Part shown: positions 259 to 8,219 of the stretch, one piece after another
Layout of the letters: each line of letters opens with the position of its first letter
Numbering within the stretch: position 1 is the stretch's first letter
Origin: a virus
Lineage: Duplodnaviria > Heunggongvirae > Uroviricota > Caudoviricetes
Reading direction: 5' to 3' (one strand)
Length of the DNA: 8,233 nt
Virus record (IMG/VR): IMGVR_UViG_2548876858_000010
Coordinates: 1 to 8,233 of that record
Made by a program: the position numbers and the translations under genes
The notes under the pieces: model-generated
Told to the model about the DNA's origin: nothing
What the model saw: the letters and a program-made list of their open reading frames with translations, nothing else
Databases searched by the model: none

Positions 259-458
259 AAATAAAGGGATAACGATGATAGTTTGAGAAAAACAGAAATA
301 ACACTTTTGTTGCAGCGCATGGTGCCGGGTGCCTCCCGGTGAATTCAGCCGGTGTCACTGAACCCGCGTCGGCTTGCCTATAACATAATAAATGCTACCT
401 ACACCAGTCGCCCCTCCGCACAGGGGGATTCACCATGCAGTAGTGTTTTTAATAAACA

Positions 459-489
459 GCAAATAAAAAAATCAAGCATTATTTATGCT
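459..489 (-). terminator. Weak AT-rich hairpin plus U-tract at the end of the TerB/small-membrane operon
   Basis: Minus strand: AGCAU-AAAUA-AUGCU followed by UGAUUUUUUUAUUU. The stem is only 5 bp and AT-rich and overlaps the last codons of the 55-aa ORF. Confidence 0.3.
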
Positions 490-639
490 GTTTCTTTTTA
501 TCACCGACCACAGCAATACCACAATGCCGCAGACCAGCACCCCATCCGCCAGCACCGACATGATTCTGCTGGTGAAATCCACCATCACCACCAGAAACAG
601 CAGGAGTGCAGCCACAGTCAGGCGCAGTTTTACCGTCAC
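472..639 (-). CDS. Small hydrophobic protein (55 aa, two predicted transmembrane segments), translationally coupled to the TerB-like gene
   Basis: GTG start at 639..637 overlaps the TerB-like stop as GTGA; GGAG lies 8 nt upstream. Manual translation: MTVKLRLTVAALLLFLVVMVDFTSRIMSVLADGVLVCGIVVLLWSVIKRNSINNA. Below the ORF-track cutoff; start codon uncertain (in-frame ATGs at codons 19 and 27). Confidence 0.35.
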   Translation of the reverse strand: MTVKLRLTVAALLLFLVVMVDFTSRIMSVLADGVLVCGIVVLLWSVIKRNSINNA

Positions 640-1068
640 AGGTGATTCTCCAGACGAAGACCCAGAACACCGGCAATCTCTTCCAGCACCTTGCGCTCTT
701 CCGGCTCAATTTCGCCTTCTGCCTCCGCAATGGCCACCGCCACATCCAGCACATCTTCCGCTTCACGCGTATCGTGTTTCACATCCTCGATCTCACGTAA
801 CGCCGCACGACGACCAATTTTAAAGTTCGTATCCAGCTGACCGATAATGGTTGCGCTCATCGCATTAATTTCTGACGTAAACGCGGACAGCGCTGGCTGA
901 TTACGCAGTACCTGTTCGATCTTCGCTTTCTCGGAAGCCTCACATTCACCATCTGCACAGGCCACCAGGTATGCGGCGTTAATCACCGCCTGTGCCAGAT
1001 CGCGTTTTTCAAACTTTTTAATTTCCGTTGCCGCTCTGCGGGCTTTTTTTACCAAAAATACCAAACAT
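636..1068 (-). CDS. TerB-domain (tellurite-resistance TerB-like) protein with an apparent frame break at an A7 run near the 5' end
   Basis: Track ORF 636..1097 translates to a TerB-like sequence (…KKARRAATEIKKFEKRDLAQAVINAAYLVACADGECEASEKAKIEQVL… acidic C-terminus). The only ATG with a good SD (AAGGAA-N7-ATG, ATG at 1068..1066) gives MFGIFGKK then hits a stop after 16 codons. Removing one A from the A7 run (plus T7 at 1044-1050) joins it to the long frame. Confidence 0.65.
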
Positions 1069-1237
1069 CGTGACGTTCCTTTGGGTGGGTGAGCCAACGC
1101 CCGGGAGCGATCTGCCCACAGAGAAAGTCACACTGACCACTCCATAAGCTCCCCCCGAAAGGCTCTGTGGTTGGTATGCGCCGGGCGTGGTGCGGATACA
1201 AAAAAGGTCCGCAAAAGCGAGCGAGGGAAAATAAGTG

Positions 1238-1314
1238 TGGTGCGTTGTACTGGGTTCGAACCAGTGACCGATTGCTTAGAAGGCAATTGCTCTGTCCGGC
1301 TGAGCTAACAACGC
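1238..1314 (-). tRNA. argO: tRNA-Arg, anticodon TCT (77 nt)
   Basis: Manual cloverleaf: GCGTTGT/ACAACGC acceptor, GCTC/GAGC D-stem, anticodon loop CTTCTAA, ACTGG-TTCGAAC-CCAGT T-arm, 3' ACCA encoded. Symbol is by analogy with the Stx-phage ileZ-argN-argO triplet and is not verified. Confidence 0.85.
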
Positions 1315-1327
1315 AGAATACCGATAA

Positions 1328-1404
1328 TGGACCGCCATCGGAGACTCGAACCCCGCGAAACCAGCTTCGAAGGCTGGCGTTCTATCCCGATGAGCTAATG
1401 GCGG
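1328..1404 (-). tRNA. argN: tRNA-Arg, anticodon TCG (77 nt); one D-stem mismatch and discriminator U
   Basis: Manual cloverleaf: CCGCCAT/ATGGCGG acceptor, anticodon stem CCAGC/GCTGG with loop CTTCGAA, T-loop TTCGAGT, 3' TCCA. D-stem GCTC/GAAC has one mismatch. Symbol by analogy only. Confidence 0.75.
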
Positions 1405-1405
1405 T

Positions 1406-1481
1406 TGGTGGCCCTTGCTGGATTTGAACCAGCGACCTGGCGATTATGAGTCGCTCGCTCTCACCACTGAGCTAAAGGGCC
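1406..1481 (-). tRNA. ileZ: tRNA with CAT anticodon, ileX-like (probable lysidine tRNA-Ile2; elongator Met not excluded)
   Basis: GGCCCTT…AAGGGCC acceptor, anticodon loop CTCATAA, T-loop TTCAAAT, CCA encoded. Close to the E. coli ileX sequence from memory. Separated by 1 nt from the next tRNA. Confidence 0.85.
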
Positions 1482-6220: not shown

Positions 6221-6376
6221 TTACTCCTCAGGTTCGTAAGCTGTGAAGACAGCGACCTCCGTCTGGCCGGTTCGGATTCGTACCTCGCAGAGGTCTTTCC
6301 TCGTTACCAGTGCCGTCACTATGACGGTTAAACAGATGACGATCAGGGCGATTAACATCGCCTTTTGCTGCTTCAT
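6221..6376 (-). CDS. hok: Hok-family type I toxin (51 aa)
   Basis: Manual translation MKQQKAMLIALIVICLTVIVTALVTRKDLCEVRIRTGQTEVAVFTAYEPEE, matching the HokD/RelF sequence as I recall it. Missing from the ORF track because it is under 60 aa. Confidence 0.92.
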   Translation of the reverse strand: MKQQKAMLIALIVICLTVIVTALVTRKDLCEVRIRTGQTEVAVFTAYEPEE

Positions 6377-6432
6377 AGCCTGCTTCTCCTTGACCTTTCG
6401 GTCCGTAAGAGGCTAATCTCTATGTGTCGCAT
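6373..6432 (-). CDS. mok: mok-like leader reading frame (19 codons) ending in TGA overlapping the hok ATG
   Basis: ATG at 6432 with GAGG 8 nt upstream; MRHIEISLLRTERSRRSRL. Start region aligns with the R1 mok start (cuAUG…GAUAGCCUCUUAC) from memory. Shorter than R1 mok. Confidence 0.45.
   Translation of the reverse strand: MRHIEISLLRTERSRRSRL
6390..6419 (+). promoter_or_regulatory. Sok promoter candidate (TTGACC-N18-TAATCT), antisense to the hok/mok translation-initiation region
   Basis: Hexamers read on the plus strand in the position equivalent to the R1 Sok promoter. Confidence 0.45.
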
Positions 6433-6495
6433 AGATATGGCCTCAGATTAATGTTAAGCGTCTTGCAGGACGCGTAATGTTAACTGGGGCTTTTC
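6426..6495 (+). ncRNA. sok: Sok-like antisense RNA (approximate extent; 3' end not resolved)
   Basis: Inferred from the promoter at 6390-6419 and complementarity to the hok mRNA leader. Contains hairpin GCGTC-ttgcag-GACGC; I could not identify a clean terminator. Confidence 0.35.
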
Positions 6496-6552
6496 TCTAT
6501 CTGCCTTTTGGTGTTCATGCCTGAGACAGATAGCCTCAAGCACCCGCAGTCA

Positions 6553-6634: not shown

Positions 6635-6814
6635 TTACCGCCAGTATTCAATGCACATGACCGCCATGAACACCCCTAAAAAAAGGGCATTTATATGTCC
6701 AAACATTAATATCAAAACATCAACTTTTTCCATATACCTTGCTGTGAAGATGATGGGCATACATGATGCGAACAACCAGAACGCAACAAACAAAAACTGC
6801 AATGCGTTTTTCAT
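6635..6814 (-). CDS. Small membrane protein (59 aa, two hydrophobic segments) in an AT-rich islet
   Basis: ATG at 6814 with AGGGGG 4 nt upstream; MKNALQFLFVAFWLFASCMPIIFTARYMEKVDVLILMFGHINALFLGVFMAVMCIEYWR. The track lists a GTG-extended 72-aa form (6635..6853). Confidence 0.45.
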   Translation of the reverse strand: MKNALQFLFVAFWLFASCMPIIFTARYMEKVDVLILMFGHINALFLGVFMAVMCIEYWR

Positions 6815-7296
6815 TATTCCCCCTACAATCAATGTGCAATAACATTTAAACACACCTCAATTTAGCCGGACATATAAATATCTAAACCAGAAAAAATCAC
6901 TTACATAGCGTTACAAACTCTTTAGTCTAAATATTCATCGTAAAACATTCCCCATACTTATCAGCCCGTTCTGCGCCAGGTAGCTCATTGCCTTATCTGG
7001 GAATCTGTAATCAGGTTTCCGGATGCTGGTGGATTTTCGCATTTTAGTTGTTCATAAAAGTGCACAGCTTTAACCAGTTCTTCTGATGTAACCGGGACTG
7101 GCGGGGCAGTGAATAAGGCCTGAATTTCATAGTTCGGCCTGTCGTTACAATCCTCTTTTTTCGGTACATATTTCCAGTCACCAGACCACTACTTCCCCTG
7201 AAAGTCCGTAACGCCTTTTTTTCACGTAGCGATATCGCCATGCCACTGTTTTTGCTTGCCCCGCCGTTTCATGCCCTTCCTGATAATTAACCTCGC

Positions 7297-7473
7297 TCAT
7301 TCATCGCCCCACTCATCACAATATGCTTCGACCGGAGTTTTTCCTGCTTCATAATCATCACGCCATGCTTCAGCATCAGCAGCACTGCCACCACGTAACT
7401 CTGCATAGTCCATTAACAGTTCATGCCATTCTTCAAAACCGACGTTGTATTTAGTTGAACCAAAATCAGCCAT
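7297..7473 (-). CDS. Small acidic protein (58 aa), W/Y/D/E-rich
   Basis: Manual translation MADFGSTKYNVGFEEWHELLMDYAELRGGSAADAEAWRDDYEAGKTPVEAYCDEWGDE. Its ATG overlaps the upstream 60-aa ORF by 8 nt (AATGGCTGA). Not in the ORF track. Confidence 0.45.
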   Translation of the reverse strand: MADFGSTKYNVGFEEWHELLMDYAELRGGSAADAEAWRDDYEAGKTPVEAYCDEWGDE

Positions 7474-7648
7474 TTTGTTCTTCCTCTTCGTCTTTTATTT
7501 CGTGATATGAGTAATTGCAGTAGTTAAAGAAAATATCTTTTGCTTCGTCATGTATTTCATCAGGCGTCGCATCATCATCCACTTCGAATTCATCCTCGAA
7601 ATCTCCACCGGCTATTCCCGTTTCAATAATTATTTTAAACTTTCGCAT
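7466..7648 (-). CDS. Small, strongly acidic protein (60 aa)
   Basis: Track ORF MRKFKIIIETGIAGGDFEDEFEVDDDATPDEIHDEAKDIFFNYCNYSYHEIKDEEEEQNG, about 20 D/E against 5 K/R. AGGAGG lies upstream, separated from the ATG by a stable hairpin. Confidence 0.5.
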   Translation of the reverse strand: MRKFKIIIETGIAGGDFEDEFEVDDDATPDEIHDEAKDIFFNYCNYSYHEIKDEEEEQNG

Positions 7649-7656
7649 TTAACTAC

Positions 7657-7672
7657 CGCCCTTTCGGGCGGC
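7657..7672 (-). promoter_or_regulatory. GC hairpin with GAAA tetraloop between an AGGAGG SD and the ATG of the 60-aa ORF
   Basis: Minus strand AGGAGG-CCGCCC-GAAA-GGGCGG-uaguuaa-AUG, read directly. Confidence 0.35.
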
Positions 7673-7741
7673 CTCCTGATGTTCTGAGGGTGCAGAAATC
7701 CCTCCGGTTAAGGATTAAATTTTTAACAGAGCTAAATTTAA

Positions 7742-8098
7742 TTATTCAGTTCTGGATTTTGTCGCCCTGCGTATCCGCGCTTTCGCGTTACGCTCAATCT
7801 GAATTAGCTTTTCTATATTTTTTCGCCTTTCCCGCTCCTCCTGACGCAAGAGCCTTACATCATCTGCCAGTCTGGTTTCTCTTTTCGCCACAGAGAGCAT
7901 CCAGTCAAATGGTTCCACAACTGCACCGCAGATTTTACAGCGGACCTGACGCTCTTTTTCGTCAACCCGGACAGAGGCGTGATGACAATATGGTCTTTCC
8001 GATGGCTCATAAAGAAAATTAACCTGATTACGAGGGTCATCCTCTTTTACCGGAAATAAAACGATATTGCTTAACTCATCCTCTGGTTTTATTTCCAT
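7742..8098 (-). CDS. Hypothetical prophage protein (118 aa) with zinc-ribbon-like Cys/His cluster and basic coiled-coil-like C-terminus
   Basis: ATG at 8098 preceded by GGAGAGGAG. MEIKPEDELSNIVLFPVKEDDPRNQVNFLYEPSERPYCHHASVRVDEKERQVRCKICGAVVEP… then an R/K/E-rich tail. The track's 137-aa version starts further upstream and overlaps the 47-aa ORF. Confidence 0.55.
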   Translation of the reverse strand: MEIKPEDELSNIVLFPVKEDDPRNQVNFLYEPSERPYCHHASVRVDEKERQVRCKICGAVVEPFDWMLSVAKRETRLADDVRLLRQEERERRKNIEKLIQIERNAKARIRRATKSRTE

Positions 8099-8219
8099 GC
8101 TCCTCTCCTTTGATGCGAATGCCAGCGGTAATTGAAGCCTGATAGCTAATTTCACTCACAGTACCGCCTCCTGAAAATTTAATGAACAATTCAATACGTT
8201 CTTTGGTAATAGTGGTCAT
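8076..8219 (-). CDS. Possible small ORF (47 aa) with strong SD, overlapping the start of the 118-aa ORF
   Basis: AAGGAG-N6-ATG at 8219. MTTITKERIELFIKFSGGGTVSEISYQASITAGIRIKGEEHGNKTRG. Below the ORF-track cutoff; coding status uncertain. Confidence 0.3.
   Translation of the reverse strand: MTTITKERIELFIKFSGGGTVSEISYQASITAGIRIKGEEHGNKTRG

Follow-up and report, generated by a model that had tools for sequence, protein, structure and literature searches.

The overlapping genes orfA and orfB of an Escherichia coli lambdoid prophage encode small, strongly acidic proteins of two separate families which, on the evidence of profile and fold comparisons, are already catalogued, uncharacterised and unrelated to any known DNA mimic. 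To judge from the loci at which each gene occurs without the other, their apparent pairing is an accident of mosaic assembly and not a functional unit. It is tentatively proposed, at somewhat less than even confidence, that the products are two independent stoichiometric inhibitors of host proteins, of the class that serves host takeover or counter-defence; binding itself, the kind of target and any effect on defence are inferred from circumstantial evidence.

Genomic context

The window, meaning the whole 8,233-nt stretch of DNA that was analysed, comes from a Rac/Qin-type lambdoid prophage of E. coli, and the early rightward operon is read on its minus strand. The features discussed below are as follows, in operon order.

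7742-8155, minus strand: zinc-ribbon protein, first in operon order, before orfA
7649-7677, minus strand: orfA translation-initiation block (sequence and RNA fold)
7466-7648 (read 7648 to 7466), minus strand: orfA, ATG start, TGA stop, 60 aa
7483-7486, minus strand: Shine-Dalgarno-like motif GAGG of orfB, lying within the acidic-tail codons of orfA, 9 nt before the orfB ATG
7466-7473, minus strand: orfA/orfB junction ATGGCTGA, 8 nt, in which the start of orfB is, in the other frame, the GGC TGA end of orfA
7297-7473 (read 7473 to 7297), minus strand: orfB, 58 aa
7044-7300, minus strand: decayed gene directly downstream of orfB
6635-6853, minus strand: hydrophobic 72-aa ORF between the decayed gene and hok/sok
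6221-6545, minus strand: complete hok/sok type I toxin-antitoxin locus, with a 51-aa Hok ORF and the sok RNA (Rfam, 106.7 bits)

Beyond hok/sok, the operon continues with an 83-aa protein, a 92-aa protein, DUF968, RusA, Q, a DNA methylase, three tRNAs and a TerB-domain gene. An identical stretch is present in E. coli CFSAN061770, where it lies downstream of cI/Cro-like, YdaT, O-like and DnaC-like genes; in the annotation of that genome, orfA is WP_001224662.1 (DUF7167 family protein) and orfB is WP_000753057.1 (hypothetical protein).

Evidence for two genuine genes

An initial annotation, made from the DNA letters, had described a pair of ORFs of 60 and 58 aa that overlap by 8 nt, both highly acidic and the second rich in aromatic residues, with one of them missing from the ORF track. 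The two ORFs and their overlap (7466-7473, minus strand) are as described, and the missing one is orfB, whose 58 aa fall below the usual 60-aa cut-off. Their acidity likewise holds: orfA carries 20 D/E against 5 K/R (33% D/E, net charge -15, pI 4.05) and orfB 16 against 4 (28% D/E, net charge -12, pI 4.05). The two are the most acidic of the 31 ATG-initiated ORFs of at least 50 aa in the six frames of the window, the other real genes of which contain 4-18% D/E. The aromatic richness of the second protein was also borne out (nine residues), but not as a trait of orfB alone, orfA having eight. Finally, the same annotation could place neither protein in a family; neither family is indeed characterised, but orfA belongs to DUF7167, and both proteins fall into PHROG families (1997 and 519, respectively).

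Both genes are clearly conserved and widespread. Of 5,426 complete E. coli genomes, 1,909 contain the 352-bp orfA-orfB segment, the exact orfA and orfB sequences are found on at least 1,000 contigs each, and a search of viral contigs returned at least 80 identical copies. A search of genome contigs returned 0 loci with a single protein as query, and only four with an alignment. In comparisons with copies that are diverged but intact, orfA shows 7 synonymous and 3 non-synonymous changes, a dN/dS of 0.08, and orfB has a dN/dS of 0.07-0.16, the upper value coming from a copy with a dS of 1.45, and by these ratios both genes are under purifying selection. Antisense ORFs on the plus strand (7323-7454 and 7550-7687) were set aside as coding sequences, lying as they do opposite two genes under such selection.

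Diverged copies of both genes lie in the Qin prophage remnant beside dicC/ydfW (L009 and L012, 3001-3352), with approximately 89% DNA identity to the window and with stop codons in each (K37* in orfA and W37* in orfB); NCBI labels the orfA copy a pseudogene. The decay of both genes in this domesticated remnant would fit a role in the phage cycle, as opposed to a benefit to the lysogen. These stop codons, together with the pseudogene that follows orfB in the window, could also be taken to mean that the ORFs are chance or decaying remnants without function. That reading is refuted by the conservation and selection data and is given practically no credence: conservation extends over phage families and plasmids, the dN/dS values lie well under 1, both proteins yield confident predicted models, and their exact sequences recur on contigs in the numbers given above. 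Thus, by family HMM matches, selection and RefSeq annotation, orfA and orfB are real, conserved genes.

Protein families and predicted folds

By its profile matches, orfA is a full-length member of DUF7167 and PHROG 1997. It aligns with the Pfam DUF7167 model (PF23768) over profile positions 1-60 of 60, scoring 55.1 bits against a gathering cut-off of 24.4 (E=7.9e-15), and with PHROG 1997 over columns 1-57 of 57 (E=9e-31); with DUF7167 it shares length, acidity and the conserved residues E9, T10, E22, I32, A36, F40, C44 and Y46. A profile search gathered 165 relatives, and among 49 members of DUF7167 the net charge has a median of -14 and a range of -18 to -6. The conserved acidic positions are 9, 22, 24-26 and 38, and there is one conserved cysteine. 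Scans of Pfam, NCBIfam and PADLOC returned nothing besides DUF7167, a family with neither a recorded function nor a literature of its own.

orfB, in turn, is assigned by sequence to PHROG 519, the family of plasmid R721 ORF R721_90; it matches columns 76-137 of the 143 in that profile (E=5.5e-22) and is 88% identical to the IncI2 plasmid protein WP_000753050.1. It has no match in Pfam, NCBIfam or PADLOC, and none of 32 orfB relatives scanned against Pfam gave one either. An exhaustive search of 1.84 billion representative proteins yielded only 62 clusters, and the family is on this count a small, tight one of proteins of about 55-60 aa. Residues F13, W16, W37, Y41, G44 and P47 are at least 90% conserved and L20, A24, G28 and T46 are conserved at 81-88%; the net charge of the 32 relatives has a median of -10 (range -15 to -4), and acidic residues are conserved at positions 14, 15, 33, 40, 42, 49 and 53. 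For each family, the conservation of acidic residues at particular positions suggests that its acidity is more than a matter of composition. Weak matches of orfB to long repeat proteins were dismissed, since they covered one helix only.

Structure prediction with family alignments as input gave confident AlphaFold2 models for both proteins. The orfA model (pLDDT 89.6) has a predicted beta-hairpin (strands 2-8 and 17-23), a helix (29-43), an ordered and conserved C-N-Y-G segment (C-x-Y) and a C-terminal acidic tail that is predicted to be poorly ordered; a fold search of BFVD with this model returned uncharacterised phage proteins only, from phAPEC8, Lactococcus phage 949 and Streptomyces phage Paedore. 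The orfB model (pLDDT 86.5) is a predicted three-helix bundle (helices 13-27, 34-42 and 47-55), each helix of which carries acidic residues at i, i+4 and i+8, a pattern that may hint at phosphate-like spacing. No catalytic or metal-binding motif was found in either protein. With about 57 aa each, confident compact models and no catalytic motif, both are probably too small for catalysis.

Translation signals and independence of the two genes

The initiation block of orfA is composed of the sequence AGGAGG (7672-7677), a hairpin CCGCCC-GAAA-GGGCGG (7656-7671) and a 7-nt spacer (7649-7655), followed by the ATG. The GC hairpin has 6-7 bp and a GNRA loop, and its RNA fold is predicted at -21.6 kcal/mol (z=-2.7); in one relative the loop has changed from GAAA to GGCA and the stem has been kept. 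The linear distance from the Shine-Dalgarno sequence to the ATG is 23 nt. The block is a candidate split Shine-Dalgarno, in which folding would bring the Shine-Dalgarno sequence near the start codon, an arrangement that we take to resemble the split Shine-Dalgarno of T4 gene 38. The whole block moves together with orfA, being found behind a different upstream gene as well.

The junction between the two genes likewise appears to travel with only one of them. On IncI2 plasmids, the very same ATGGCTGA ends an unrelated DUF1187 gene upstream of orfB (...TAT GGC TGA; L110, 9001-9008), and on a Klebsiella IncU plasmid orfB shares 8 nt with the gene for a 140-aa membrane protein, as given by annotated coordinates only (L113, 7001-7008). 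The recurrence of the same junction behind unrelated upstream genes indicates that the 8-nt overlap belongs to the start, or module, of orfB itself, and on this sequence evidence it is not a mark of an orfA-orfB partnership. The stop codon of orfB also overlaps the next ATG (ATGA), and overlapping stop-start junctions of this type are common in such operons. A 127-aa "fusion" protein (P0144) was rejected as an artefact of read-through from DUF1187 into orfB.

Outside close E. coli lambdoid prophages, each gene is found without the other within flanks of 2.5-4 kb or more per locus. For example, Serratia, Scandinavium and Thiotrichaceae loci and phage Det7 have orfB but not orfA, and the reverse holds for Klebsiella, Enterococcus and Phapecoctavirus-like phages. 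A profile comparison of the two families revealed no relationship between them. The description of the proteins as a pair has therefore been abandoned, and a toxin-antitoxin system or an obligate two-protein complex was rejected because each family occurs alone.

Distribution across phages and plasmids

Relatives of orfA were found by tblastn in lambdoid and Stx phages, Klebsiella phages, Enterococcus Herelleviridae and Phapecoctavirus-like phages. In Klebsiella Guernseyvirinae, the DUF7167 gene overlaps an exonuclease gene and lies upstream of it; in Enterococcus Herelleviridae, the DUF7167 gene abuts an exonuclease gene and lies downstream. Elsewhere, it overlaps an SNF2 helicase gene that follows DNA polymerase A, or is located near DNA polymerase A or PDDEXK genes, and in a P22-like left operon it forms part of the series Arf-Erf-SSB-Dam-DUF7167-theta-xis-int, where theta is a theta/HOT homologue. 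In the Stx phage ArgO145, DUF7167 is present in the Ea22 region together with orfB.

The orfB family is distributed across temperate phages, virulent phages and plasmids. Among phages, it directly follows the P2-type replication protein gpA in two lineages, lies between two HU-like genes and GemA/Mor in the early region of a Mu-like prophage, and is present in approximately 177 genomes of the virulent Ackermannviridae. In the T7-like phage phiKDA1, an orfB homologue is located between the DNA polymerase and the 5'-3' exonuclease, and the depositors had annotated it as similar to R721_90 (plasmid R721 ORF 90). Among plasmids, 554 PLSDB entries carry orfB, 516 of them conjugative and most about 60 kb in size, and the match is at 80-90% identity in 412 of the 554. 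An example is the mcr-1.1-bearing IncI2 plasmid NZ_AP027644.1, the one record examined in detail, which encodes an orfB homologue of approximately 88% identity. Specifically, the gene lies in an operon (L110, 8348-10974) with a CaiF/GrlA-like regulator, DUF1187, SPFH and NfeD, between repA and the type IV secretion genes. The leading region of a plasmid was taken to span roughly 30 ORFs, counted from oriT on its leading side; on this plasmid orfB is approximately the 23rd listed ORF from mobC/relaxase, a count for which the nick site and transfer direction are set by analogy and the PLSDB gene tables are incomplete. Finally, on IncT and IncU plasmids, orfB is embedded in long same-strand arrays of small hypothetical genes.

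Comparison with known systems

DNA mimics are structurally diverse, and T7 gp5.9, with 52 aa and a pI of 4.0, is one of unprecedented fold (PMC9836394). The absence of a fold match thus lowers the chance of membership in a known family and does not bear on mimic-like action. Such absence was general: sequence and profile searches of PDB chains (phmmer and hmmsearch) with both proteins gave nothing at E<=0.1, comparison with solved structures, known DNA mimics included, found none that either predicted model resembles, and no likeness of sequence or fold was seen to Ocr, ArdA, Gam, gp5.9, Arn, Ugi, p56 or DMP12/19. Both proteins are small and carry conserved, strongly negative charge, and this generic property is the only one that they share with the mimics.

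T7 gp5.9, an inhibitor of RecBCD and MukBEF, resembles orfA and orfB in its length (all in the range of about 52-60 aa), in its pI of about 4.0 and in being encoded by a non-essential early gene. Moreover, the interval between polymerase and exonuclease in T7, which contains the host inhibitors 5.5 (anti-H-NS) and 5.9 (anti-RecBCD and anti-MukBEF), is also the position of the orfB homologue of phiKDA1. However, gp5.9 is a dimeric parallel coiled coil (PMC9836394; its inhibition of MukBEF, PMC7617805), unlike the predicted three-helix bundle of orfB and the predicted hairpin plus helix of orfA, and hhalign gave a probability of <1% for gp5.9 against either protein. The anti-restriction proteins Ocr and ArdA, which phages and conjugative plasmids produce early on entry, are also strongly acidic (PMC3439906, PMC2731889). 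Their size is two to three times that of orfA and orfB, and they form elongated dimers that mimic a stretch of bent B-DNA; neither was among the best 60 structural matches of orfA or orfB, and there was no Pfam match.

By position, the natural comparison is with the nin region of lambda, which also lies between the replication genes and Q and encodes small proteins of similar size. NinD, NinE, NinF and NinH, of 57-68 aa, are basic or zinc-binding and not acidic, and neither orfA nor orfB matched the Pfam and NCBIfam models of these or other Nin families at E<=1. A match to a characterised nin-region family, which the initial annotation had held out as grounds for abandoning its proposal, was accordingly not found.

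No component of a defence system in PADLOC was matched at E<=1 by orfA, orfB or the other ORFs submitted. Within the library searched, DUF7167, DUF1187, the peptide motifs and the WP accessions are not named in any paper, and experiments on either family were likewise not found; neither family is present in the supplements of the accessory-gene screen of Silas et al. or of the leading-region study of Samuel and Burstein. The only functional claim for PHROG 519 is a machine-learning prediction, in which PaCRISPR/AcrHub nominated its members as candidate anti-CRISPR proteins (Acrs) in five of six Kuttervirus genomes (PMC9409062).

Proposed function and alternative explanations

In the proposed scheme, orfA and orfB, two unrelated accessory genes of the delayed-early rightward operon that lie between the replication genes and the hok/DUF968/RusA/Q block, would be transcribed together and translated in tandem. 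Each product would be a small, independently folded, enzymatically inert and very acidic protein, made early after induction or entry, which would act alone by binding stoichiometrically to a basic, probably nucleic-acid-binding, surface and thereby block its target, either a host protein or a protein of a competing element. Consistent with such inhibitors, the genes occupy early or accessory positions in all contexts viewed. Against them, neither a 58-aa bundle of three helices nor a monomer made of a hairpin and a helix comes near the length of a DNA-mimicking rod, barring oligomerisation, and many of the conserved residues make up the aromatic and hydrophobic core, so that conservation alone reveals no interface. 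The absence of both families from the supplements of the two studies named above also counts against the proposal.

The case for an inhibitor is stronger for orfB than for orfA because orfB is so widely spread. Its presence in temperate phages, virulent phages and conjugative plasmids alike suggests a target that gammaproteobacterial hosts share and that matters to any DNA on entry; the obvious class of candidates would be nucleases of restriction or repair. That orfB is specifically an anti-defence protein is plausible but rated well below even odds. Rated similarly low is a bolder form of the proposal, in which the orfB family would be a new structural class of acidic three-helix counter-defence proteins that mimic nucleic acid or in some other way plug the site where a nuclease conserved in gammaproteobacteria (for instance a RecBCD-like enzyme or a type I restriction enzyme) holds DNA, and DUF7167 a second, independent inhibitor with a broader host range that includes phages of Firmicutes.

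The main rival is that one or both proteins serve the DNA replication or recombination machinery of the element itself, as accessory subunits or as modulators, for instance as partners of an exonuclease, helicase or recombinase. It is stronger for orfA, whose family sits beside an exonuclease gene in two unrelated groups (Guernseyvirinae and Herelleviridae), overlaps the SNF2 helicase gene, and recurs in the Erf-SSB-Dam block and near DNA polymerase A or PDDEXK; for orfB, the positions after P2 gpA and between the polymerase and exonuclease of phiKDA1 point the same way. However, the neighbouring enzyme varies and no partner is constant, the window and its close relatives have no adjacent exonuclease or recombinase, and the IncI2 operon examined places orfB beside a regulator, DUF1187, SPFH and NfeD and not beside replication enzymes. 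Early DNA-metabolism modules, moreover, also house host inhibitors such as T7 5.5 and 5.9, and we regard an accessory role of this kind as unlikely overall.

Another alternative retains the mode of action and moves the target, so that the proteins would affect host physiology outside defence, as general factors of takeover or establishment. The nucleoid proteins H-NS and HU, RNA polymerase, the SOS response and cell division are examples of what they might act on. The evidence that suggests an inhibitor (small, acidic, early and widespread on mobile elements) serves this alternative equally; orfB follows two HU-like genes in the Mu-like prophage, and T7 gp5.5 (H-NS) and gp5.9 (MukBEF; PMC7617805) demonstrate that such targets exist. 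Nothing indicates a specific target, however, and this alternative, which overlaps the proposed inhibition and differs from it in target class only, is likewise judged improbable. Far less probable still is an anti-CRISPR role for orfB and perhaps for orfA. Small size and acidity are frequent among Acrs, and the nomination of PHROG 519 in the Kuttervirus genomes speaks for it, but that nomination is a machine-learning score alone (PMC9409062); no aca-type HTH gene was annotated or noticed beside either gene in the contexts viewed, as judged by annotation only, neither protein matched any solved structure in sequence or fold, deposited Acrs included, and the elements that carry the family have hosts with very different CRISPR types, or with none active.

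As the evidence stands, orfA and orfB are ordinary uncharacterised accessory genes, and the useful results are negative or clarifying: the genes are real and catalogued, they form no pair, and they have no kin among known mimics. If either does prove to be an inhibitor of host immunity or DNA metabolism, then a very small new fold would join the anti-defence repertoire. For orfB, such an inhibitor would be encoded by prophages in about a third of complete E. coli genomes and also by IncI2 colistin-resistance plasmids, and were its target a nuclease, it would aid the spread of phages and of mcr-1 IncI2 plasmids. Both genes are cheap, well-defined candidates for anti-defence screens.

Other features of the window

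The decayed gene at 7044-7300 (minus strand) consists of two overlapping ORF pieces of 40 and 65 aa and is described by PGAP as frameshifted with an internal stop; an intact 119-aa version is present in another strain (locus L010, 2645-3004). The 72-aa ORF at 6635-6853 (minus strand) is very hydrophobic, has a GC content of 37% and is without a match in Pfam, PHROG, NCBIfam or PADLOC, and could be a moron that encodes a small membrane protein. Another IMG/VR viral contig, IMGVR_UViG_2534681663_000008, distinct from the window although likewise 8,233 bp long, aligns to it in three blocks at 87-99% identity, with different orfA coordinates. Finally, the region downstream of Q and the 352-aa DNA methylase (284-1481, minus strand) contains the tRNAs Arg-tct, Arg-tcg and Met/Ile-cat, together with the TerB-domain protein (636-1097) and the sRNA STnc100 (284-464). 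The position of these tRNAs downstream of Q is presumably that at which Stx phages carry tRNAs followed by stx.
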